Shown: positions 3,062 through 54,534 of the stretch, in pieces
Position numbering within the stretch: position 1 is the first letter of the stretch
Layout: each line of letters begins with the position of its first letter
NCBI GenBank assembly: GCA_016182095.1
Contig: JACOXY010000014.1
Span: forward strand, 7,234 to 71,233
Direction of reading: 5' to 3'
From: Candidatus Liptonbacteria bacterium
GTDB lineage: Bacteria > Patescibacteriota > Minisyncoccia > UBA6257 > JACOXY01
DNA length: 64,000 nucleotides
Notes under the pieces: model-generated
Told to the model about the DNA's origin: nothing
What the model saw: only the letters and a program-made list of their open reading frames with translations
Database searches by the model: none
Made by a program: the position numbers and the translations under genes

Positions 3062-3619
3062 CTATATTTTTTTCACCTGCAGTGAATCAATCTCCACCGC
3101 CGTATCTCTGCCGAAAATCGGCACCATAACCTTGACCTTGCCCTTCTCCTCATCTACTTCCGCAATCTTGCCATCATAATCCTTAAAGGGGCCGTCGGTA
3201 ATCTTTACCATCTCCCCCACGCGCAATTCAACGGTCATCTTGGGCTCACCTTCTCCCATCTGACCTAAAAGAAAATCAACTTCTTCCTTAGAAAGCGGGG
3301 TGGGCACGGTTGAGTCGGCGCCAACGAATCCAGTAACGCGCGGGGTATTTCGTACTATATACCATGATTCTTCGGTCAAAATCATGTCCACCAAAACATA
3401 TCCTGGATAAATTTTCTCCTCAATAGTCTGACGCTTGCCGTTTTTAATCCTTATCTTTTTTTCTTTTGGAACCAAGACATTGAAAATTTTGTCCCCGGCC
3501 TCAAGCGATTCTATTCTTTGCGTTAAGTAGCGAACGACGGCATCTTCGTATCCGGCGTAGGTGTGAATTGCGTACCAATGCCTATTTTTGGTTGTTTTTA
3601 CTTCTTGTTGGTCTTTCAT
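3062..3619 (-). CDS. nusG: transcription termination/antitermination factor NusG
   Basis: NGN and KOW regions (WYAIHTYAGYE... / ...GEMVKITDGPFKDYDGKI); conserved secE-nusG-rplK order. Confidence 0.9.
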   Translation of the reverse strand: MKDQQEVKTTKNRHWYAIHTYAGYEDAVVRYLTQRIESLEAGDKIFNVLVPKEKKIRIKNGKRQTIEEKIYPGYVLVDMILTEESWYIVRNTPRVTGFVGADSTVPTPLSKEEVDFLLGQMGEGEPKMTVELRVGEMVKITDGPFKDYDGKIAEVDEEKGKVKVMVPIFGRDTAVEIDSLQVKKI

Positions 3620-3767
3620 GGCACATAATGCGAAATTTGCAAATTTATTATGCCTATAGCCTGTCGGCTCGGCCGATTAAGGCGAATACCGCGAAAATTG
3701 ATTCTGAACTTTCGCACCATTCGCATACGGTTTTAGTTGTTTCGCATTATATATATAATTTTGAAAA

Positions 3768-4079
3768 CTATTGCATTGGCTCTGCCGGAGGAACTGTTGT
3801 TACGTCCACATCTCCGGTTGCGCCCACTCCCCCGACTTCAAAATTCGGTAAATTAGCTGATTCAAGCGGCGCGGCATTTGTTGGGTTATTGTCGCCCTGG
3901 ACTATCATTTTCACCCCTTCTAAAAACAAAAAATCAAATACACCCAGAAATGAGGCAAGGGCGACCGAAATAACAATAACAATGCCGGTTAAACGCATCG
4001 TCTCTTCTCTTGTGGGCCAATTAACGCGCATTAATTCCTTGCGGGATTCCTGCAGGAATAATTTGATTTTGTGAAACAT
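3768..4079 (-). CDS. secE: preprotein translocase subunit SecE, with a C-terminal extension
   Basis: LQESRKELMRVNWPTREETMRLTGIVIV followed by a TM helix is SecE-like; position upstream of nusG. Confidence 0.7.
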   Translation of the reverse strand: MFHKIKLFLQESRKELMRVNWPTREETMRLTGIVIVISVALASFLGVFDFLFLEGVKMIVQGDNNPTNAAPLESANLPNFEVGGVGATGDVDVTTVPPAEPMQ

Positions 4080-4161
4080 GCTAAATTTATTTTCCGCCTT
4101 AGGCGGATCAGCTTTGGCTGAAAATTGATTAATCGATAAAATTTAACTATAAATTCTTGCA

Positions 4162-4196
4162 CCCCGTTAGATGGCGGCTCCGCCTATCTAACGGGG
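4162..4196. terminator. about 16-bp intergenic hairpin (CCCCGTTAGATGGCGG/CCGCCTATCTAACGGGG) between the gyrB 3' end and secE
   Basis: near-perfect palindrome seen in the sequence; only a weak T-run, so terminator function is uncertain. Confidence 0.35.
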
Positions 4197-4386
4197 TAAG
4201 GTTTTGTAACTGCAATTTGTTCGCGTCTACGCTCCAAATTTTAGACAAAGCCCTTAAAAAAGAGCGGAGCGCCCTTATTTGTTACATGATACCAGAAAAT
4301 CCCAAAAAAGCAACTCCCCTTCCCCCGAAGACTGCCCAACTAAAGTCCTTGAACATAAGTTAATTATACCACATTAACATTAAAAT

Positions 4387-7300
4387 CTAAATATCTAAAT
4401 TTTTGACCCCAGCGGCGTGAGTTTGGATAAATTGTTTTCTGGGCTCAACTTCGTCGCCCATTAAAATATCAAAAAGTTTATCGGCGTCTTCGGCATCTTT
4501 TACGGTTACAACCAGCATTTTGCGGGTAGCGGGATTCATGGTGGTATCCCAAAGCTGATCCGGATTCATCTCGCCCAAACCTTTATATCGCTGAACATTA
4601 ACCGCAACTCGCCTATCCCCCGCCGCCTCTTCAGCGTCCGCTTTCTCCGCTTCTTTTAATTCATGCTTTCCGGCTCGCGCTTTGCCAAATTTCACGATGA
4701 TCGCTTCTTTTTCGTTTTCATTATATGCATACTGAACCTCTTTGCCTGATTGAATTCTAAAAAGCGGCGGCTGGGCTATGTAAAGATAGCCGCCATGAAT
4801 AACCTGCGGAAAATAACGATAGAAAAGGGTGAGTAGCAGGGTGCGAATGTGCGCCCCATCAACGTCGGCATCGGTCATAATAACAATCTTGTGGTAACGA
4901 ATTTTTTCTATATTAAAGTCCTGGGCGATGGCGGTCCCCAGAGCCATCACCAGCGCGCGGATTTCTTTATTGGCAAGCATTTTATCTATGCGCGATTTTT
5001 CTACATTCAAAATTTTCCCGCGCAAAGGAAGTATTGCCTGCGTGCGCCGATCGCGGCCCATTTTTCCGCTATTGTGCACAAACACGCCAGAAGCCAATGC
5101 GAAATTATGAGTTTTAGGAACTTCAAGGTCATAAACATCAACTTTTTCATTAAGCCAAAGGATTTCTTTAATTTTGTGGTTATGACGCTCTACTGCTTCA
5201 ACTAAATTTCTTGCGTCGCTTCCAAAAAATCTTTTAACAATAGTTTCGGCGCGTAGCAAGTTTTTGTCATTAGTTGCTTTTCTTAGATTCTCATACTCAC
5301 TAAAGTCAATTTCGCCTTTAGTTTCGTAGATACCGCGCAAAGCTTGCAGGGCTTTCTGCTTATAGGTTTCGTTATAAGCAAGTTTTCTCCTTAAACGAAA
5401 TTCGGGCGTCCATTGATCTTTGGTTTTGCCGCTGCGCCATTTTTTAAGCTTCTCATCATTCCATTGTATTTTAGCGAATTCGGAGTAAGCAAGACGTTTT
5501 TCTGGATGGTTTTCAAAATAAGCTCGCGTGCGATTCGCTTGATCGCGCCGATTTTTTTCTTCTGACCAATATTCTTTTTGCGCTCTGCTTAAAATGCTCG
5601 CGCTCTGTGCCCGATAGGCCGCATTATTGTGATAAAAATCCAAAAATTTATCAGTCATAAATTGCTTATAATCTTTGTCTTGCCACTGTTTTTGGGCACG
5701 CTCACTTAGCATCTTTCTCATTTGTGGAGTAGACATGCTGGCTCTAATTTTATTCCTGTATTCAGGTGTCTGCCTTATTAGACGAAGTTTTTCTAAAACT
5801 TGAGGGGATCGCAAAAAAATATCCGCCATTTTACGATGCAGGCCTAAATGATCTTCGCTTGAAAGTCGTGTAATATTTTCCGGGTTATTGTTTAGTTTAT
5901 TGAAATCTATATGGTGTCTGTGCGCGCCAATGCTTTTTTCGTAAATATTATTTTTCAGATTATAGTCGTCAGATAGCATGTGGGTAAAAATCCATTTCTG
6001 GTTCTGCGAATTAAAAACCATTTCGTATCCGTCAATTGTAATGCGACCGCCAATTTTGGATATTTTTTTGTATAACGGCATTAGCGAGTCTTGCGATAAA
6101 AGATCCCTAGCTTTTTTATAAGAACCATTAAGAAGCATGAATTCGTGGTCTGGCGTACAAATAATTTCCTCGCCATTATCAAGCACAACTTTAACAACTT
6201 CTGTATTCTTTTTAGTAATCCTAGGATAAACTATTTTCTGTATTGCAACTGCCCCATCTTTATCAATGGTGTAGCAATAGTTTTGTATGCCTTTTTTATC
6301 CTCATGGACCAAATCCTTAAAAGACAAATTGCGTCCATCAGCCAGTGAAACTTTTGTGTTGCCCGAAAAACATCCTCCGGCTGAATCGCCTTCCACTATA
6401 AACAATTCCGATTCGGCCGGGTCTCGCGATGAGCAATCGGCTAATTTCCCTGGCAAGGTTAAGCCCTCAAGAATTCCTTTTCGCAAAACGGTGTCTTTCG
6501 CGGCCTTAGCGGCTTTGCGAGCTTTAGCCGCAAGCAAACACTTTTCAACCATTCTCCGCGCGTCAGCCGGATGTTTCTCTAAAAATTCTTTCAAAGACTC
6601 GCTTACCACCGATTCAACAACCGTTCTCGCCTCCGGAGTCCCAAGGCGGGCTTTGGTTTGCCCTTCAAATTGCGGTTGGGAAAGTTTAACGGAAATGACC
6701 GCCACCAAACCTTCGCGCACGTCATCGCCCGTCAAATTGTCGTCTTTTTCCTTTAAGTAACCCTCGGTTCGCGCGTAAGAATTGATGGCGCGGCTCAAAG
6801 CCGATTTAAACCCGGTTGAGTGCATGCCGCCATCGGAAGTATAGATGTTGTTGGCAAAACTTAACTCTTTTGATTCAATATCCTCGGTATAAGTAAAAGC
6901 TACTTCTACTTCTATGTTATTTTCGCTTTTTTGGATGTAAAAAGGATCGTCCTGCAGAACTTTCGCGGCAGGAGTAAGGTGCCGCAAAAACGAAAGCAGT
7001 CCGCCGTCAAATTTAAGGGCGTAATATTTTGGCGCGTCAGTCCTTAAATCCCAAAAGTCAATTCTAACTCCCTTTGTTAAAAACGCCTGCTGGCGCAAGT
7101 GGTCCAAAATATACTTCCAATCAAATTTAATCTCTCCGCCACCGGTTGAAAAAATCTCCGGGTCTGGCTCAAAAATAACTTTAGTGCCAATTTGATCGCA
7201 TTTACCGACCCTCTTCACGACTTTCTTCGCCTTGCCTCGTTCATATTCTTGCTCATAAAGATAGCCATCCCGACAAACTTCGGCTTTAAGATAAATTGAG

Positions 7301-7716
7301 AGCGCGTTAACCACAGAAACCCCAACGCCATGCAAACCACCGGAAACTTTATAAGAATCACCGCCAAATTTGCCCCCGGCGTGAAGCGTGGTCATAACTG
7401 TTTCCAGGGCGGATTTTTTCGTCTGCTTATGAATATCAACCGGGATGCCGCGCCCATTATCGGTAACCGCCACCCTATTCCCCGGCAAAAGCTCAACTTT
7501 GATAGCAGTGGCATACCCAGCCATCGCCTCATCAATAGAATTATCAACCACTTCCCAAATCAGGTGGTGCAAGCCGGCGCTGTCGGTTGTGCCAATATAC
7601 ATCCCGGGGCGCTTTCTTACCGGCTCAAGACCCTCCAAAACATAGATGTCCTTTGCTTCATAGCTCGCGTGCTTTGACGCGTCTGGAGTTTTTTTAGTTT
7701 CTTTTACTTTTGCCAT
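4387..7716 (-). CDS. gyrB: DNA gyrase subunit B, interrupted by an in-frame intein
   Basis: 1109-aa ORF; GHKL ATPase motifs, TOPRIM EGDSAGG and a C-terminal GyrB tail; host protein is about 675 aa once the 434-aa intein is removed. Confidence 0.95.
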   Translation of the reverse strand: MAKVKETKKTPDASKHASYEAKDIYVLEGLEPVRKRPGMYIGTTDSAGLHHLIWEVVDNSIDEAMAGYATAIKVELLPGNRVAVTDNGRGIPVDIHKQTKKSALETVMTTLHAGGKFGGDSYKVSGGLHGVGVSVVNALSIYLKAEVCRDGYLYEQEYERGKAKKVVKRVGKCDQIGTKVIFEPDPEIFSTGGGEIKFDWKYILDHLRQQAFLTKGVRIDFWDLRTDAPKYYALKFDGGLLSFLRHLTPAAKVLQDDPFYIQKSENNIEVEVAFTYTEDIESKELSFANNIYTSDGGMHSTGFKSALSRAINSYARTEGYLKEKDDNLTGDDVREGLVAVISVKLSQPQFEGQTKARLGTPEARTVVESVVSESLKEFLEKHPADARRMVEKCLLAAKARKAAKAAKDTVLRKGILEGLTLPGKLADCSSRDPAESELFIVEGDSAGGCFSGNTKVSLADGRNLSFKDLVHEDKKGIQNYCYTIDKDGAVAIQKIVYPRITKKNTEVVKVVLDNGEEIICTPDHEFMLLNGSYKKARDLLSQDSLMPLYKKISKIGGRITIDGYEMVFNSQNQKWIFTHMLSDDYNLKNNIYEKSIGAHRHHIDFNKLNNNPENITRLSSEDHLGLHRKMADIFLRSPQVLEKLRLIRQTPEYRNKIRASMSTPQMRKMLSERAQKQWQDKDYKQFMTDKFLDFYHNNAAYRAQSASILSRAQKEYWSEEKNRRDQANRTRAYFENHPEKRLAYSEFAKIQWNDEKLKKWRSGKTKDQWTPEFRLRRKLAYNETYKQKALQALRGIYETKGEIDFSEYENLRKATNDKNLLRAETIVKRFFGSDARNLVEAVERHNHKIKEILWLNEKVDVYDLEVPKTHNFALASGVFVHNSGKMGRDRRTQAILPLRGKILNVEKSRIDKMLANKEIRALVMALGTAIAQDFNIEKIRYHKIVIMTDADVDGAHIRTLLLTLFYRYFPQVIHGGYLYIAQPPLFRIQSGKEVQYAYNENEKEAIIVKFGKARAGKHELKEAEKADAEEAAGDRRVAVNVQRYKGLGEMNPDQLWDTTMNPATRKMLVVTVKDAEDADKLFDILMGDEVEPRKQFIQTHAAGVKNLDI
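5071..6372 (-). other. intein (Hint splicing domain with an HNH endonuclease-like domain and a basic repeat-rich region) in gyrB, inserted immediately after EGDSAGG
   Basis: starts with Cys (CFSGNTKVSLADG...TPDHEF), ends ...VYDLEVPKTHNFALASGVFVHN followed by Ser+1; internal HRHHIDFNKLNNNPENITRLSSEDH is an HNH motif; residues 449-882 of the ORF. Confidence 0.8.
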
Positions 7717-7907
7717 TTTTAAATGAAGAGCGTAGCGATGAATCTACAAAAATGAGCACCCCGCTCTAATTTTGCTATCACCATATCTTAAAATTCAGTT
7801 GGAACTATTTATATGATATTTGGTGCGACCTGCGCGTGCCGAATAGGCACATCCCGCTAATGGGCGAAGCGGGTCGCCATGGCATATTCCGCAAAATTAG
7901 AGCGGGG
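7717..7907. promoter_or_regulatory. family-2 element upstream of gyrB: conserved leader (AAGAGCGTAGCGAT...GAGCACCCCGCTCTAATTTTGC) whose far partner GCAAAATTAGAGCGGGG lies about 115 bp away; the spacer carries GC-rich local hairpins
   Basis: 17-bp perfect inverted repeat at 7759-7775 and 7891-7907; the leader is shared with the parB and rpsR upstream regions. Confidence 0.45.
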
Positions 7908-8242
7908 TAGCCATCTCAACAAAATAATGCTCCCCCCAGGAGCTAGATTTTCTTAATATTTTATACTTACAGTTTAGCATAAAACGAGTCTAAAAACAAC
8001 AGAAATTGGACTTAAAAAGCAACGCTACCCCGCACTAAATTCCGCACATTATTTGCTCTAAACTGCTTTTATTATCGTCACGGAAACCGCCTCAACTCCG
8101 GGTAGTGAATTGAATGAGTTTCGGCTTTGGCAAGCGCTCTTTGTTCGCTAACATAGAGAATTAGCGCGGGGTTCTGTTGCTTGTAGCTTTTCGAACTGCG
8201 CGCTTCGCGCTTGTTCTTAAAGACAAGCAACGAAAAAGAGGG

Positions 8243-9935: not shown

Positions 9936-11198
9936 TTATAGCTCTGCTGTAGTTGCGATGACCTTTGTACCCGCTCTGGGCTTCATGCCCGTCAGTGGTA
10001 TTGTAACATAAAAAGCAGTGCCTCGCTCGTCCGTAGCTTCACGCGAAGGAGAGCCATGCCCACCCACAGACTCAAACCAAATTTTCCCGCCGGCCGCTTC
10101 CAGGGTTGCCTTAACAATATATAATCCCAAACCGTTGCCTTCAATCTCATTGCTTTTAACATTGTCTGCCCGAAACATTTTGGTAAAAATTTGCGATTTT
10201 TGATCTTCCGGTATTCCATAGCCGGTATCCGTTACTTTAATAAGCGCGTTCTCGCCATCCTTAATAATACTCAAGCTTATGCTGCCTCCCTCCGGGGTAT
10301 ACTTAATGGCATTTGATAATAAATTCTGAAAAACTATCCAGACTATTTTGGAATCGGCATTTATGGAAACCAGAGTTTCGTCATAGCGCTTTTCCAGTTT
10401 CAGTTTTTTCTCCATGAGCTTTCCTGCGAGCTCACCCAAAACGCCCTCGGCGATTCCCGCTAAACTCACTGGCTCCGGGTTAATTGAAAAAGTTCCCATT
10501 TCAACCCGTGAAACATTCAGTAGGGCGTTTACCAAATTTATGACTCTTTTTATGCTGTAGCCAATCTCATTTAAATACTGTATCTGCTTGTGGTTTAGCT
10601 CTCCCACTCTACCCGAAAGAAGCATCTGCGCGTACCAATTGATAACGGAAAGCGGGGTGTTCAACTGATGCGAAACCAAGGACACAAACTCACCGCGCAC
10701 CCTATCCGACTCCTTCCTTAGGGTAATATCCTGATGCAAGGAGCCATAAAACAATATCTCCCCGCCCTTGGACTTAATCGGAAAAACAGAAAGATTGGTT
10801 TCATATTCAGTGCCATCTTTGCGGCGATTAATAATTTCTTCCGTCGTCAAAGACTCGCCGTTCTTCAAGGAGTCCCACATTTTTTTATAGGCGAGTTGGG
10901 GAGTTTTGGAACTGCGCAGAAGGCGGGGGTTCTTGCCCTTGATATCAATCAAACTATAGCCGGTAACCCTTTCCCAGGTAGGATTTACATAAATAATATT
11001 GCCATCCAAATCAGTGATGAGAATTGCCTCCGTTGAGGCATCCACAATGGATTGAAAAATGTGCACCTCGCCGCTAACCGCCCTTGGGTCCGCTTTTAAC
11101 TCACTTAACTCCGCGGAGATTTTTTCTTTTTCGGCAAGCGCGCTCTCTAAGGCGGCTTTAAGTTTTTCTACTTCTTGGTTTGATGAAAATCCTAACAT
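9936..11198 (-). CDS. sensor histidine kinase with a PAS domain
   Basis: PAS region, H-box HQLNTPLSVI, N/G boxes (...NAIKYTPEGG...GTGLGL); upstream partner of the response regulator. Confidence 0.85.
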   Translation of the reverse strand: MLGFSSNQEVEKLKAALESALAEKEKISAELSELKADPRAVSGEVHIFQSIVDASTEAILITDLDGNIIYVNPTWERVTGYSLIDIKGKNPRLLRSSKTPQLAYKKMWDSLKNGESLTTEEIINRRKDGTEYETNLSVFPIKSKGGEILFYGSLHQDITLRKESDRVRGEFVSLVSHQLNTPLSVINWYAQMLLSGRVGELNHKQIQYLNEIGYSIKRVINLVNALLNVSRVEMGTFSINPEPVSLAGIAEGVLGELAGKLMEKKLKLEKRYDETLVSINADSKIVWIVFQNLLSNAIKYTPEGGSISLSIIKDGENALIKVTDTGYGIPEDQKSQIFTKMFRADNVKSNEIEGNGLGLYIVKATLEAAGGKIWFESVGGHGSPSREATDERGTAFYVTIPLTGMKPRAGTKVIATTAEL

Positions 11199-47734: not shown

Positions 47735-50700
47735 TTACGCGGAAACCGAGGCTTCGCCTTCTTCATCCTCTGTCACAAGCAGATCTTCTTCGGTTACATT
47801 CAACCCCGTTCCAGCAGGTATCAACCGGCCGATAATGACGTTTTCTTTCAATCCTCTTAACTTATCAACCTTGCCCTCCGAAGAAGCCGCGACTAGCACT
47901 CTCGCTGTTTCCATAAACGAGGCGGCCGAAAGGAAGCTTTCGGTTGAAAGAGCTACTTTAGAAACACCCATTAAGAGCTGTTTCGCGCGCGCCGGCGTCT
48001 TCCCTAACCGCTTCATGGCGCGGTTAACTTCCAAAAACTTGGATTTTTCAAGAACATCTCCGAGTATAAATTCAGTGTCTCCAGAATCCACAACCCTTAC
48101 CCTTGAGAAGAGCTGGCGAATTATAACTTCAATGTGCTTGTTGTTGATTGAAACACCTTCGGAAACATAGATTCTTTGAACCTCGCTTATAATATACCTT
48201 TCAACCGCGCTTCTGTCTTTGTAGGCATAAAGTTCCTGTAAATCCACGTGACCTTCCGAGAGCTGATCGCCTTTCTTAACTGAATCTCCGGCCTTAACAT
48301 AAACTTCCGCCAAGCGGCTAACCTGATATTCAACTGCCCTGCCCTTTTTCCCCGCAAGTTTTACCTTTATAGTCTTCACCATCCCCTTCTCTTCCACGTC
48401 TAAAATTTCTCCATCATCTTCGGCAAGTAGCGCCTTGCCCTTGGGAATCCTTAACTCAAAAAGCTCCTCAACCCTAGGCAATCCGCTTGTGATATCGGCT
48501 CCGGCAACGCCGCCAGTATGGAAAGTCCTCATAGTGAGCTGAGTACCGGGCTCGCCTATTGACTGGGCGGCCACGACGCCAACACTTTCTCCGATTTTTA
48601 TGGGGTGATTGGATCCGAGATCAAGCCCATAACACTTGGCGCATATACCATACAAAGTTTTGCAAGTTATGGGCGATCTTACTTTAACGGACGCGAGATC
48701 GGATTCTTGAATATCCACGCTTGAGGCGTGATCAATAATTTCTCCGGCTTTTACCGCGGTTTTGCCCCTGCCGCCGTGAACCTTAATATCCTCCAGGGCA
48801 ACACGCGAGAATACTCTTCCAGCAAACGCGTGCCCGAATAGCTCTCCATCTTCCCTGAAAATTGAAACTCCTTCCTTAGTTTTGCAATCTTCCTCTTTAA
48901 TAATTAAATCCTGTGAAACGTCAACGAGCCGCCTTGTCAAATAGCCAGCTTGCGCCGTTTTAAGAGCGGTATCGGTTGTCCCCTTCCTTGCTCCGTGAGT
49001 TGAAATAAAGTACTCCAAAACACTTAAGCCCTCTTTAAGGGAAGACTTGATGGGCAGTTCAATAATCTCGCCCTTTGGATTTGCCATCAATCCCCTCATA
49101 CCCATCATCTGGCTGGGCTGGGCCCATGAACCGCGAGATCCGGAATCAATAATGGAATAAATCGGGTTTTCGACTTTAAGTTCAAGGGGCACGAGTTTCG
49201 CGACCTCCTTCCCGGTTCTCATCCAAACATCAATAACCCTGGCTTTGCGCTCGGCTTCGGTCAGGAATCCTTCGCTGTACTGCTCTTTTATCATTTCCAC
49301 CTCTTGCTCCGCTTTTTTAATCAATTCATATTTAGCCACGGGGATAATCATATCCGCCGCCGACCAAGTAATACCCGATTTGGTGGCAAATTCAAAACCA
49401 ATATCTTTAAGCTTATCAATTAAAAGCCGACCCTCTTCAATGCCATAGCGATTTACAACATTGCCAACCAATTTAGAAAGACTGTTTTTATTCTGGGTTT
49501 CGTTAATAAACTCATATGCTTCCGGCAACACGCTGTTGAATATGAGCCTTCCGCAGGTGCTAATTATTGTGCCATGCATATTTTTCGGATCTTTGACTGT
49601 AATCGGCTCGTTTATCATGATCGCGCCCGATTCATACGCGGCCAGGGCCTCAATCTCGCCACTCATGGCTTTTTTTGGTTCACCCTGAAGCAGGGACGTC
49701 AAATAATAAATGCCGAGCACAATATCTTTATCCGGTTTCGCAATCGGATCGCCGGTAGCCGGCTTCAAGATATTGCGGCTAGCGAGCATTAGTTCTTCCG
49801 CTTCCTTTTGAGCGTATTTTGAAAGCGGCAGGTGAACCGCCATCTGGTCGCCGTCAAAGTCAGCGTTAAAAGCCGTGCAAACCAAAGCGGGAACTTGGAT
49901 GGCCAGGCCCTCAATAAGAATCGGCTTAAAAGCCTGGATGCTTAAGCGATGCAAAGTAGGCGCCCTGTTTAAAAGCACCGTTTTGTTGGCAATTACCTCT
50001 TCTAAAATCGCCCAAACTTCCGGTGGGGCCTGTTCTATCAAACGATTTGCGTTTTTAATAGTGTAAACGAAACCATCCCGGATAAGACGGCTTATCACGA
50101 ACGGCTTGAAAAGTTCCAGGGCCATTTTTTTCGGCAAGCCGCATTCGTCAATTTTAAGCCGCGGACCGATAACGATAACCGATCTCCCGGAATAATCAAC
50201 GCGCTTGCCAAGCAGATTCTGCCTAAAGCGGCCCTGTTTGCCCTTCAGATAATCGGCGATTGATCGAAGCGGCCTCTTTTGCGCGGAGAGTTGTTGAGAT
50301 CCTATTCTCGAAGAATTATCAATGAGCGCGTCCACCGCCTCCTGTAACATTCTCTTTTCATTCACAACAATCACTTCGGGGGCCTTCAACTCCAGAAGCT
50401 TCTTCAGCCGATTATTTCTGTTTATAACACGCCGGTACAAATCATTGAGGTCAGAGGTGGCGTATCTACCTCCGTCTAAGGGCACCATTGGGCGAAGATC
50501 GGGCGGAATAACCGGCAAGGTTTTCAAAACCATCCATTCGGGGCGAATATTATTTTTATGCATTGAGCGCATGAGCTTTAGCCGCCTCATCGCCTTTCTT
50601 TTTTGCGTCGCTTCCTTGATTTCATCCACTTCCTTTTCAATTCGAATATACTCTTTCTTTAAATCAAGATTTTCAAGAATTTGACGCACCGCTTCGGCTC

Positions 50701-51310
50701 CAGAACTGGCTTTAAAAACATCGGCAAACTTTTTGGCCAGGGTGTAGTATTCGCTTTCAGAAATAATTCTGCCTACGTGGATATTTTCGAGCGCCTCTCT
50801 GGTTTTTTCGGCGGCGGCCTTGAGCTGGCTTGCCTCTTTTTTGGTATCCAGAACTTTTTGCCTTACCTGAAGTTCGCGATCAATTTCCTCCAAAACCCGC
50901 TTTTTATTTTCCTCGTTAACTGCGGTGATAATGAAAGCCGAGTAGTAAATAACCTTCTCCAGCTTCTGTGGAGACACGTTAAGAGCCAGACCAAGCCGCG
51001 AGGGAACGCTTCGTAAAAACCAGATGTGACAAACCGGCGCGGCTAAGGTTATGTGTCCCATTCTTTCCCGCCTTACTATTGCTCTCGTGACCTCCACTCC
51101 GCATTTGTCGCAAATAACCCCCTTATACCTAACCCGCTTGTACTTTCCGCAATAGCACTCCCAATCTTTGATCGGGCCGAATATCCTTTCGGAAAAAAGC
51201 CCGTCTTTTTCAGGACGCTGGGTACGATAATTGATAGTCTCCGGCTTTATGACTTCTCCATATGACCAGCTAAGTACTTCTTCCGGCGAAGCTAGTTTTA
51301 GTTTTAGTTT
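47735..51310 (-). CDS. rpoC: DNA-directed RNA polymerase subunit beta-prime; the 5' end is unresolved (see 51311-51349)
   Basis: the conserved N-terminus (LASPEEVLSWSYGEVIKPETINYRT...CYCGKYKRVRYKGVICDKCGVEV) is in frame upstream of the ORF-track start (GTG 51097) back to the TAA at 51311; no canonical start codon in that interval. Confidence 0.9.
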   Translation of the reverse strand, partial: KLKLKLASPEEVLSWSYGEVIKPETINYRTQRPEKDGLFSERIFGPIKDWECYCGKYKRVRYKGVICDKCGVEVTRAIVRRERMGHITLAAPVCHIWFLRSVPSRLGLALNVSPQKLEKVIYYSAFIITAVNEENKKRVLEEIDRELQVRQKVLDTKKEASQLKAAAEKTREALENIHVGRIISESEYYTLAKKFADVFKASSGAEAVRQILENLDLKKEYIRIEKEVDEIKEATQKRKAMRRLKLMRSMHKNNIRPEWMVLKTLPVIPPDLRPMVPLDGGRYATSDLNDLYRRVINRNNRLKKLLELKAPEVIVVNEKRMLQEAVDALIDNSSRIGSQQLSAQKRPLRSIADYLKGKQGRFRQNLLGKRVDYSGRSVIVIGPRLKIDECGLPKKMALELFKPFVISRLIRDGFVYTIKNANRLIEQAPPEVWAILEEVIANKTVLLNRAPTLHRLSIQAFKPILIEGLAIQVPALVCTAFNADFDGDQMAVHLPLSKYAQKEAEELMLASRNILKPATGDPIAKPDKDIVLGIYYLTSLLQGEPKKAMSGEIEALAAYESGAIMINEPITVKDPKNMHGTIISTCGRLIFNSVLPEAYEFINETQNKNSLSKLVGNVVNRYGIEEGRLLIDKLKDIGFEFATKSGITWSAADMIIPVAKYELIKKAEQEVEMIKEQYSEGFLTEAERKARVIDVWMRTGKEVAKLVPLELKVENPIYSIIDSGSRGSWAQPSQMMGMRGLMANPKGEIIELPIKSSLKEGLSVLEYFISTHGARKGTTDTALKTAQAGYLTRRLVDVSQDLIIKEEDCKTKEGVSIFREDGELFGHAFAGRVFSRVALEDIKVHGGRGKTAVKAGEIIDHASSVDIQESDLASVKVRSPITCKTLYGICAKCYGLDLGSNHPIKIGESVGVVAAQSIGEPGTQLTMRTFHTGGVAGADITSGLPRVEELFELRIPKGKALLAEDDGEILDVEEKGMVKTIKVKLAGKKGRAVEYQVSRLAEVYVKAGDSVKKGDQLSEGHVDLQELYAYKDRSAVERYIISEVQRIYVSEGVSINNKHIEVIIRQLFSRVRVVDSGDTEFILGDVLEKSKFLEVNRAMKRLGKTPARAKQLLMGVSKVALSTESFLSAASFMETARVLVAASSEGKVDKLRGLKENVIIGRLIPAGTGLNVTEEDLLVTEDEEGEASVSA

Positions 51311-51349
51311 TTACTATACCCCATACCCTATGCCCCATACCCTTTTCAT
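51311..51349 (-). other. anomalous rpoC 5' end: ATG overlapping the rpoB stop (TAATG), 11 codons of G-rich repeats (GGGTATG GGGCATA GGGTATG GGGTA, G-quadruplex-like), then in-frame TAG TAA, then (AAAACT)x3 leading into conserved beta-prime sequence
   Basis: read directly from the minus strand; an alternative +1-frame ATG (51338-51336) would join the rpoC frame with a single-base shift inside the (AAAACT)3 repeat. Confidence 0.6.
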
Positions 51350-54300
51350 TATTTCTGTCTATCTTGTTTTATCGCCTGACCTTGATCGTCCAATAACTCC
51401 ACGCCCAATCCCAGCGCCTTTAACTCATTGGTTAAAACACTAAAGGTCGCGGGGACATTAGGCGCTTTTATCGGCTCATCCCGTATAATTGATTCAAAAG
51501 CCGATGAACGACCCGCAATGTCGTCTGATTTAATGGTCAGCATTTCCTGAAGCGTGTAAGCCGCGCCGTAACCTTCAAGAGCCCAGACTTCCATCTCTCC
51601 AAATCTCTGGCCACCGAACTGCGCCTTGCCTCCCAATGGCTGCTGTGTAACCAGTGAATATGGGCCGATTGATCTCATGTGAATCTTGTCCTCCACCAAG
51701 TGGTTAAGTTTCATGATATAGATATAACCAACCATAACCTCCTTATCAAAAGACCTGCCGACTCTGCCGTCATAAAGCTTTACCTTGCCGCTTTCGGGAA
51801 GATTAGCGGCCCGCAGTTCCGCCCTTATTTCTTCTTCGGAGGCCCCGGATAAAGCCGGGGTTACCGCCCGGAAACCATTCACGTGGGCCGCCCAACCTAA
51901 ATGGGTTTCCAAAATCTGCCCGATATTCATGCGAGACGTAACGCCCAAAGGATTTAGTATAATGTCAACCGTGGTGCCATCCTCAAGATATGGCATATCT
52001 TCCACCGGCCGAATTTGCGAGATAACGCCCTTGTTGCCATGGCGGCCGGCGAGTTTGTCGCCAGCTCTCACATTTCGTAATTGCGCTATCTCAACCTGGA
52101 TTCTTTTTATAACCCCGGGCTCAAGCCTATCTCCTCTCTCGCGTGAAAAAATTTTAACACCCACAATACGTCCGTATTTCCCATGCGGCAAGGTTAATGA
52201 GGTATCCTTGACATCACGAGCTTTTTCACCGAATATGGCCCGCAATAATCTTTCCTCCGACGTAAGTTCGGTCTCTCCCTTGGGAGATATTTTCCCCACG
52301 AGAATATCCCCCGATCTCACCTCGGCGCCGACCCTCACAATCCCCTCCTCGTCAAGATTTTTTAGCTTTTCCTCTGAAACATTTGAAATGTCGGGGGTAA
52401 TTATCTCCGGACCAAGTTTGGTGTCGCGAACATCGCAGTAAAAATCTTCTATGTAGATTGAAGAAAATCTATCCCCCTGAACTACGCGCTCCGAAAGAAT
52501 AATGGCATCTTCAAAATTGGCGCCCTCCCAAGAAGCAAAAGCAACCAAAAGATTTTGGCCCAAACCCAAAACGCCGTTTACCGTGCCGGGGCCGTCAACC
52601 AGAGTTTCCCCCTTCTTAACGACACTCCCTTTAGTAAGCAATAATCTCTGCGAAATAGAGGTGCCTTGATTGGATCGCTTAAAATTAAGCAGTTCGTAGG
52701 TTTTGGTGCCTAATTTTTTATACTTTAGAGTAAGTCCCGTTGCGTCAGCTTTAACGATTTCGCCATTATCTTCGGCCTTAATAAGGTAGCCCGAATCATG
52801 GGCGGCTTTTTCCTCAACGCCAGTGCCCACATAGGGAACTTGCGGCTTAACGGCAATTACTGCCTGTCTCTGCATGTTTGAGCCCATTAGGGCGCGGTTT
52901 GCGTCATCATGCCTTAAAAATGGGATTAAAGATGTTGAGACGCTAATAAATTGCTCCGGAGAAATATCCATAAAATCAACCTCTTCCTTTGGGCACGTGC
53001 CCGGCGCGCCCTTAATTCTTGCCTCAATGGAATCCTCAACAATTTTCTTGCCATCCAATTTAATACCGCCATGGGCAATTTTATATTTTTCCTCTTCCAG
53101 GGCATCCAGCCAAACCACTTCGTTCGTCACTACGCCGTTCTTTACTTTTACATACGGGGTTTCCAAAAAACCATAGGGGCTAATTCTGGCATATCCGGCT
53201 ATATAATTTATGAGCCCGATATTGGCACCCTCCGGGGTTTGAATCGGACAGATGCGGCCGTAATGCGATGTGTGGACATCGCGCACTTCAAATCCGGCTC
53301 TTTCGCGAGTCAGCCCGCCGGGGCCCATCGCGGAAAGACGCCTCTTATGCTCAATCTCAGACAAGGGATTTACCTGATCCATGAACTGTGAAAGCTGGGA
53401 TGACGCAAAAAACTCCTTAACTGTGGCCATTAGAGGCCTCACATTCAAAAGAGCGCCTGGGGCGAAACTTTCTTCCGCGATAGTGGACATTCTGTCCTGC
53501 ACAACCCTACGAAGGCGCGCGAAGCCAACCCTCATCTTGTTTTGCAAGAGTTCGCCAACGGCGCGAACGCGCCTGTTGCCAAGGTGGTCTATGTCATCCG
53601 GTTCCGCCATTGGATCATTATTAAGACGGATAAGTTCTTTAACTATCAAGACCAAATCATCAAATCTCAAAAGCCGCGAGTCAGATTTAATCTGTAATCT
53701 CTGATTCATTTTAAATCTTCCAACCATTGAAAGGTCATAGCGGTCAAACCTCTTAAACATGGCGTCAATTAAAGATTTGGCGTTTTCCGGCGTAGCCAAG
53801 TCGCCGGGCCTTAAACGTTTGTAGATTTCCAGATAAGATTCGTCAAAATTTTTGGCCGCGTCTTTTTTCAAGGTTGCCTGAAGATGTTTTATCGGCCCAA
53901 CATCAATATCTTTGAAAAGTTCGGTAAACGCGCTTCCCTCTTCATATTTTTTGCCTTCCATGGAAGCGAAGGCGCGAAGCAAATCTGTTATGGGAACTTT
54001 GCGACGGCGATCAATTTTAACCCCAATAAGCCCGTCCGGATCAGTTTCCAATTCAAGCCAAGCTCCCCGGTTAGGAATTACTTTAGCGCCAAAAAGCTTT
54101 TTGCCTCTGTAAACAACGGCCGTAAAATAAACTCCGGGAGATCTTATGAGCTGTGAGATAACAACTCTCTCAACCCCATTTATAATAAAAGTCCCCCTCG
54201 CGGTCATGAGGGGCACATCTCCGATGTAAACATCTTGGGTCTTATCTTTTTTGCTTTTCAGATTCACTAAGCGCAAGGTGGCCCTAAGTGCCGCTTCAAA

Positions 54301-54534
54301 AGTCAATCCTTTCTCAATTGACTGGACTTCATTATATTTTGGTTCATCAAAGCGGAATTCGTCAAAATGGAGTTCGTACTCTTTGCCGGTATAATCCTTA
54401 ATCGGAGACACCTCTCCAAACAGCTCTTTCAAGCCATCACCCAAAAACCAGCGATATGACTGTGTTTGAATTTCTGACAAATCTGGCTGGGGCGTTAGAG
54501 CTCCTACACCATGAGAAAAGTATTTTATAGTCAT
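51349..54534 (-). CDS. rpoB: DNA-directed RNA polymerase subunit beta
   Basis: 1061 aa with conserved beta-subunit blocks throughout. Confidence 0.95.
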   Translation of the reverse strand: MTIKYFSHGVGALTPQPDLSEIQTQSYRWFLGDGLKELFGEVSPIKDYTGKEYELHFDEFRFDEPKYNEVQSIEKGLTFEAALRATLRLVNLKSKKDKTQDVYIGDVPLMTARGTFIINGVERVVISQLIRSPGVYFTAVVYRGKKLFGAKVIPNRGAWLELETDPDGLIGVKIDRRRKVPITDLLRAFASMEGKKYEEGSAFTELFKDIDVGPIKHLQATLKKDAAKNFDESYLEIYKRLRPGDLATPENAKSLIDAMFKRFDRYDLSMVGRFKMNQRLQIKSDSRLLRFDDLVLIVKELIRLNNDPMAEPDDIDHLGNRRVRAVGELLQNKMRVGFARLRRVVQDRMSTIAEESFAPGALLNVRPLMATVKEFFASSQLSQFMDQVNPLSEIEHKRRLSAMGPGGLTRERAGFEVRDVHTSHYGRICPIQTPEGANIGLINYIAGYARISPYGFLETPYVKVKNGVVTNEVVWLDALEEEKYKIAHGGIKLDGKKIVEDSIEARIKGAPGTCPKEEVDFMDISPEQFISVSTSLIPFLRHDDANRALMGSNMQRQAVIAVKPQVPYVGTGVEEKAAHDSGYLIKAEDNGEIVKADATGLTLKYKKLGTKTYELLNFKRSNQGTSISQRLLLTKGSVVKKGETLVDGPGTVNGVLGLGQNLLVAFASWEGANFEDAIILSERVVQGDRFSSIYIEDFYCDVRDTKLGPEIITPDISNVSEEKLKNLDEEGIVRVGAEVRSGDILVGKISPKGETELTSEERLLRAIFGEKARDVKDTSLTLPHGKYGRIVGVKIFSRERGDRLEPGVIKRIQVEIAQLRNVRAGDKLAGRHGNKGVISQIRPVEDMPYLEDGTTVDIILNPLGVTSRMNIGQILETHLGWAAHVNGFRAVTPALSGASEEEIRAELRAANLPESGKVKLYDGRVGRSFDKEVMVGYIYIMKLNHLVEDKIHMRSIGPYSLVTQQPLGGKAQFGGQRFGEMEVWALEGYGAAYTLQEMLTIKSDDIAGRSSAFESIIRDEPIKAPNVPATFSVLTNELKALGLGVELLDDQGQAIKQDRQK

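Follow-up and report, generated by a model that had tools for sequence, protein, structure and literature searches.

An intein carrying an HNH nuclease was reportedly described by Dalgaard et al. in 1997; this was presumably the GyrB intein of Synechocystis PCC 6803, from which the engineered Ssp GyrB split inteins derive. In the His-Me finger classification of Jablonska et al. (2017), the 'Gyrase subunit B intein' forms a group of its own, group 22, assigned to PF13392/HNH_3 and comprising 84 bacterial and 7 archaeal members (PMC5714182), and a genome paper relates GyrB inteins across candidate phyla, Archaea and Cyanobacteria (PMC6390638). A full-text literature search for inteins in the gyrase of the candidate phyla radiation found nothing. 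Here we analyze a stretch of 64,000 nucleotides from contig JACOXY010000014.1 of a Candidatus Liptonbacteria bacterium (hereafter, the window), in which the gyrB gene on the minus strand is interrupted by a 434-residue intein. The element is very probably a canonical class-1 intein of the GyrB HNH-intein family, seated in the Toprim active-site motif of its host protein, excising itself and equipped with an HNH homing nuclease.

The interrupted gene occupies positions 4387..7716 of the minus strand as one uninterrupted open reading frame (ORF) of 1109 residues, a GyrB precursor composed of N-extein, intein and C-extein. It scored 892.9 bits against the NCBIfam gyrB profile TIGR01059 (cutoff 882.4) and possesses the Pfam domains HATPase_c, DNA_gyraseB, Toprim and DNA_gyraseB_C; without the intein, 675 residues are left that are collinear with ordinary GyrBs. 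The N-extein (6373..7716, minus strand; GyrB residues 1–448) ends with the Toprim motif EGDSAGG, the intein (5071..6372, minus strand; GyrB residues 449–882) runs from Cys1 to Asn434, and the C-extein (4387..5070, minus strand) starts with Ser+1 (SGKMGRDRRTQAILPLRGK) and holds the remaining Toprim sequence, the GyrB C-terminal tail and the stop codon. The junctions read EGDSAGG-C on the N-terminal side and HN-SGKMGRDR on the C-terminal side, with CFSGNTKV...ASGVFVHN between them. The preliminary description of this DNA, made from the letters alone, had placed a 434-residue intein directly after EGDSAGG, from Cys1 to a terminal HN followed by Ser+1; the interruption, its length and its junctions are confirmed to the base, and only the minus strand had been omitted. 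A protein 100% identical to the 1109-residue precursor (P0267) is already present in NCBI nr, assigned to a Candidatus Liptonbacteria metagenome-assembled genome (MAG).

Profile searches identify the insertion as an intein in its own right. Within it, Pfam Intein_splicing matched at 4.9e-21, NCBIfam intein_Nterm at 51.1 bits (cutoff 24.5; 2.1e-13) and NCBIfam intein_Cterm at 32.5 bits (cutoff 15.6; 7e-8), which, together with the junctions, places the identification far beyond chance. At related loci for which both exteins could be aligned, the N-extein alignment stops at residue 448, the intein comes next and the C-extein follows directly after. The two lobes of the HINT splicing domain are separated in sequence: the N-terminal lobe (residues 1–104; 6061..6372, minus strand), matched by intein_Nterm, contributes block A with Cys1 and block B with T73-P-D-H76, and the C-terminal lobe (residues 396–434; 5071..5187, minus strand), matched by intein_Cterm, contributes block F (DVYDLEVPKTHNF) and block G (GVFVHN).

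Conservation of the splicing residues was assessed in 71 full-length genomic copies of the intein from independent genomes. Each of the 71 has Cys1, T73, H76, D415, H422, H433 and N434, and the Ser+1 of SGKMGRDR belongs natively to the GyrB motif, being present also at an empty site discussed below. The preliminary description had stated beforehand that it would give up splicing if the residues of blocks F and G or of the junctions failed on re-alignment; upon re-alignment these residues proved to be the same in every copy. An AlphaFold2 (AF2) model of the intein, built on 43 relatives, has a mean predicted local distance difference test (pLDDT) score of 87.8 and brings residues 1–104 and 396–434 together in a HINT domain, for which Foldseek returned the DnaE, NrdJ-1, RecA and DnaB inteins with probability 1.0 (E ~1e-6 for DnaE, NrdJ-1 and RecA). 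The element is real and intact and, judged from its residues, a class-1 intein that looks capable of splicing. Two further cysteines are conserved in the HINT domain: Cys33 (window 6274-6276, minus strand) is kept in 70/71 copies and Cys72 (6157-6159, minus strand), which sits immediately before the block B threonine, in 71/71; a structural or redox part in splicing is possible for both. Elsewhere in the family, the GyrB intein of a patescibacterium (P0002, 57% identity) starts with SFSGETQV and so has serine in place of cysteine at intein position 1.

Between the two HINT lobes lies first an HNH (His-Me finger) nuclease domain together with the β-hairpin and helix that precede it (residues 105–187; 5812..6060, minus strand). 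The core of the HNH motif spans residues 151–179 (HRHHIDFNKLNNNPENITRLSSEDHLGLH; 5836..5922, minus strand), and the string on which the preliminary description had based its call of an HNH motif in place of LAGLIDADG, HRHHIDFNKLNNNPENITRLSSEDH, is found at residues 151–175. All 71 copies share H153, H154, D156, N161, N162, P164 and N166, and 70/71 retain H175 and H179. The profile search that had been suggested as a check gave a divided answer: three PHROG HNH-endonuclease families matched intein residues 110–237 at 3e-7 to 1.4e-5 and Pfam HNH_3 (PF13392) matched 33/43 relatives at E<=1 (best 4.5e-5), but the intein on its own fell below the HNH_3 threshold. No LAGLIDADG family matched the intein or any of the 43 relatives at E<=1. 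The AF2 model predicts a strand-strand-helix arrangement at residues 151–187, consistent with a single ββα-metal nuclease, and residues 105–395 modeled alone reached a pLDDT of 92.4. The structural neighbors of this model comprise I-HmuI and, in BFVD, phage HNH homing endonucleases (probability ~1.0, with modest E-values); some of the BFVD matches to its N-terminal part are annotated as NUMOD4. By motif, profile and model, the cargo is an HNH nuclease and not a LAGLIDADG enzyme.

The family to which the intein belongs is large. A scan of one genome per species found relatives of the intein in at least 563 genomes, in keeping with the earlier remark that gyrB inteins are established at the EGDSAGG site. 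The best 80 of these were examined and all are full length, with 53–59% identity over 434 residues including the HNH and helical regions, and all occupy the identical position in gyrB; the closest genomic relative among them is thus 59% identical. Full-length relatives at the GyrB site are carried by Patescibacteria, DPANN and other archaea, and cyanobacteria. Querying a clustered protein database with the intein alone returned 629 proteins; among the best 120 of these, every one that bears extein sequence or a source name is GyrB, and the hosts are Patescibacteria, DPANN and other archaea, Chloroflexota, Omnitrophota and cyanobacteria. A cyanobacterial (Aetokthonos) GyrB intein (P0076) is 49% identical over 379 residues, shares the HNH and helical parts and has the same end, THNFALASGVFVHN. 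The preliminary description had held HNH cargo to be less common in gyrB inteins. The reverse applies: the best 80 of the at least 563 relatives are full length through the HNH region, the HNH catalytic residues are conserved in the 71 copies, the published classification lists these inteins as a group (PMC5714182), and HNH cargo is the norm for the GyrB intein allele, not the exception. The Liptonbacteria intein is ordinary, since its family is very widespread, occurring in hundreds of genomes, and has been described before.

Compared with the GyrB HNH intein allele of the Ssp GyrB type (His-Me group 22), the Liptonbacteria intein shares the host protein, the insertion point EGDSAGG-S, the length class of ~430–435 residues and the order HINT-N, HNH, helical region, HINT-C; it differs only in its host lineage, Candidatus Liptonbacteria within Patescibacteria, and by ordinary sequence divergence. 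LAGLIDADG inteins such as PI-SceI, PI-PfuI and TliVMA have the same HINT scaffold, with the homing nuclease likewise placed between blocks B and F, and their HINT parts superpose on that of the GyrB intein, whereas their nuclease fold is unlike its own. HNH inteins of GyrA, the T4-like phage portal protein, an AAA ATPase and RtcB-related proteins carry an HNH module recognizably homologous to that of the GyrB intein, along with part of its helical region (25–40% identity), and NCBIfam RtcB_rel_intein2 matched the GyrB intein at 1.6e-40; these inteins reside in other exteins at other insertion sites and presumably have other DNA targets. I-HmuI (PDB 1u3e) and the phage homing endonucleases of the HNH_3/NUMOD type (His-Me finger group 2) are free-standing or intron-encoded instead of being embedded in a HINT domain. 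Relative to these, the helical region of the GyrB intein is much longer (~200 residues), has its own ~35-residue repeat with invariant tryptophan and lacks a NUMOD match in Pfam.

That helical region follows the HNH domain (residues 188–395; 5188..5811, minus strand) and is presumed to be a DNA-recognition module. The preliminary description had called it a basic, low-complexity repeat stretch. It is indeed basic, with 46 lysine and arginine against 29 aspartate and glutamate residues and an isoelectric point of 9.94, and it does carry repeats, but it is not of low complexity: its Shannon entropy over 40 residues (3.6–3.9 bits) equals that of the rest of the intein, and some twelve helices are predicted with pLDDT mostly >90. 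W230, W304 and W321 are invariant among the 71 copies. Three units were compared by hhalign, namely U1 (residues 216–250; 5623..5727, minus strand), the weaker U2 (residues 251–289; 5506..5622, minus strand) and U3 (residues 290–322; 5407..5505, minus strand). Alignment of U1 with U3, both helical hairpins, scored 40.8 (P 1.4e-10) against a shuffled-column maximum of 11.9, demonstrating a true internal repeat with a unit of ~35 residues; alignment of U1 with U2 scored 20.9 against a shuffled maximum of 16.6 and is marginal. The nearest matches of the region among solved structures are helix-turn-helix domains. No Pfam family was found for it, a profile search with the nuclease and helical region against PDB sequences recovered no relative and hence no solved structure for any member of the HNH-intein nuclease family, and NUMOD was without a match at E<=1 in the intein and absent among the 25 families most often matched by the 43 relatives. 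Helices of the pattern P-E-x-R-x3-S bear a loose visual resemblance to NUMOD3; membership in that family was dropped when no Pfam match at E<=1 was obtained.

By analogy with the modular helical and helix-turn-helix tails of I-HmuI-type enzymes, the homing nuclease most likely recognizes its DNA through the helical region. We further entertain, as a less likely possibility, that residues 188–395 constitute an undescribed modular DNA-recognition domain, built of ~35-residue helical hairpins with invariant tryptophans and common to the HNH inteins of GyrB, GyrA and phage portal proteins; the region lacks a Pfam family and a PDB sequence relative in the above searches, and its fold matches are weak. 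Were this so, and were each hairpin to read a few base pairs, the region would represent a new repeat-type DNA reader joined to a compact nuclease. As no member of the family has been structurally solved or, to our knowledge, biochemically characterized, the conserved helical repeat makes a reasonable, if modest, structural target.

From these components, a working model for the element can be proposed. After translation, the HINT domain (residues 1–104 and 396–434) would most likely excise itself by an N-S acyl shift at Cys1, transesterification to Ser+1, cyclization of Asn434 and an O-N shift, and splicing would restore EGDSAGG-SGKMGRDR and with it an active gyrase. In the freed intein, a basic helical array of ~200 residues with repeated helical hairpins would come after the single HNH nuclease, and the protein could act as do I-HmuI and other monomeric, modular HNH homing endonucleases. 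An intein-less gyrB site would be recognized over a long stretch by the helical region and nicked or cut by the HNH center, and repair off the intein-bearing allele would copy the element in.

The distribution of the intein among close relatives of its host is in accord with homing. No intein is present in 119/120 of the best GyrB relatives (67–78% identity), another Liptonbacteria entry among them, and one syntenic locus (L081; ENA ERZ1292624) has an intact empty site, EGDSAGG-SSKMARDR, and so serves as a clean comparator. The gene order nusG-secE-gyrB and a 420-residue ORF beyond gyrB (window 3062-4079, 9936-11198) are common to both loci; the L081 locus reads histidine kinase ... gyrB-secE-nusG-rplK, and the 420-residue gene encodes a PAS histidine kinase. 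That the closest GyrB relatives are intein-less, with a syntenic empty site in one case, fits a mobile homing element. Base composition is a further sign of mobility: the GC content of the intein is 37.6% against 47.2% for the exteins, and GC content at third codon positions (GC3) is 0.348 against 0.479. Shorter relatives of the intein carry in-frame deletions that remove the HNH center or part of the helical array, as expected of the decay phase of a homing cycle.

Several points weigh against the reading of the element as a self-excising intein with an active homing nuclease. In a sample biased to top matches, pairwise identities of inteins and exteins correlate with a Spearman coefficient of 0.35, and intein identity stays flat at ~55% across host distances. 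Frequent horizontal transfer and old vertical inheritance with saturation explain this flatness equally well, and recent mobility of the Liptonbacteria copy is therefore not established. Against HNH_3, the intein alone reached 10.4 bits (E 0.55) relative to a gathering score of 24.8. The choice between a nick and a double-strand break and the length of the target are guesses by analogy, and we know of no HNH intein endonuclease that has been characterized biochemically. The flat identity and the low HNH_3 score would also suit an intein that splices while its HNH domain no longer cuts, that is, a fixed and vertically inherited passenger late in its homing cycle, kept in place as imprecise loss would kill the essential gyrB; faster divergence of inteins than of exteins in close host pairs and the decayed relatives with deletions point the same way. 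We regard this passenger as unlikely. The Liptonbacteria copy is full length with all HNH catalytic and structural residues present, HNH residues that are invariant or kept in 70/71 bacterial and archaeal copies argue for ongoing selection on nuclease function, and nearest GyrB relatives without an intein are unexpected for a long-fixed element.

Co-option of the intein as a post-translational switch, in which conditional splicing, redox-gated for instance by the conserved cysteines, would make gyrase stress-responsive and render the nuclease secondary, seems to us very improbable. In its favor, the catalytic EGDSAGG motif of Toprim, whose glutamate has an established role, is interrupted by the intein, so that the precursor must be inactive, and Cys33 and Cys72 are conserved beside Cys1, the latter of the two adjoining block B. 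However, homing inteins typically insert at conserved active sites, the nearest relatives manage without an intein, and such a switch would not account for how strongly the HNH and DNA-binding parts are conserved. A non-splicing in-frame insertion, a gyrB pseudogene or an assembly artefact can be set aside almost entirely: the ORF is uninterrupted, the splicing residues are all intact, and the same architecture recurs in hundreds of independent assemblies in addition to the identical protein in nr. A scan of 4000..8200 against Rfam gave no match, which leaves an intron reading unsupported as well. The canonical HNH intein with a homing nuclease accordingly stands as our preferred reading.

Additional inteins were sought in the window and at related loci. 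A Pfam scan found no intein match in the adjacent minus-strand genes rpoC (1120 residues) and rpoB (1061 residues) at 47735-54534, nor was there an intein match in the six largest window ORFs besides gyrB. Plus-strand ORFs at 4849..5205, 6145..6348 and 6287..6760, which overlap the region, were regarded as antisense shadows of gyrB. At four related loci (L003, L004, L051 and L079), interruptions of the C-extein alignment had been suspected to mark second inteins, and translation showed the ordinary GyrB insertion domain. The sole true case is an uncultured Saccharibacteria MAG (L032; CAZUBI010000001.1), which has a second GyrB intein at 4507-6084 besides the HNH one. It is inserted in Toprim at MTDAD-DGAHIR, starts with SVAYDT and ends with GGFLLHN followed by threonine, and it contains the LAGLIDADG-like motifs LLGFYIGDGC and FLRGYLESDGS, such that one gyrB harbors both nuclease types. 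Multiple inteins also occur in the T4-like phage portal proteins P0185, P0189 and P0246 (1666–2383 residues), each with three or four Intein_splicing stretches and with HNH modules related to that of the GyrB intein. In BFVD, a Hint-domain protein encoded by Bacillus phage SP-15 gives the best structural match, and phages may shuttle the HNH nuclease cassette between inteins.

The locus has little weight as a discovery, being the correct annotation of a well-populated and published intein family, and its practical bearing is on gene annotation. The GyrB intein allele is encountered very often in genomes of Patescibacteria and DPANN, where it inflates the length of GyrB and can break gene calls. 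NCBI nr lists the identical Liptonbacteria protein as 'DNA topoisomerase (ATP-hydrolyzing) subunit B', a plain GyrB, without the 'intein-containing' label borne by many of its relatives, and many of the relatives in the databases are truncated gene calls that start within the intein.

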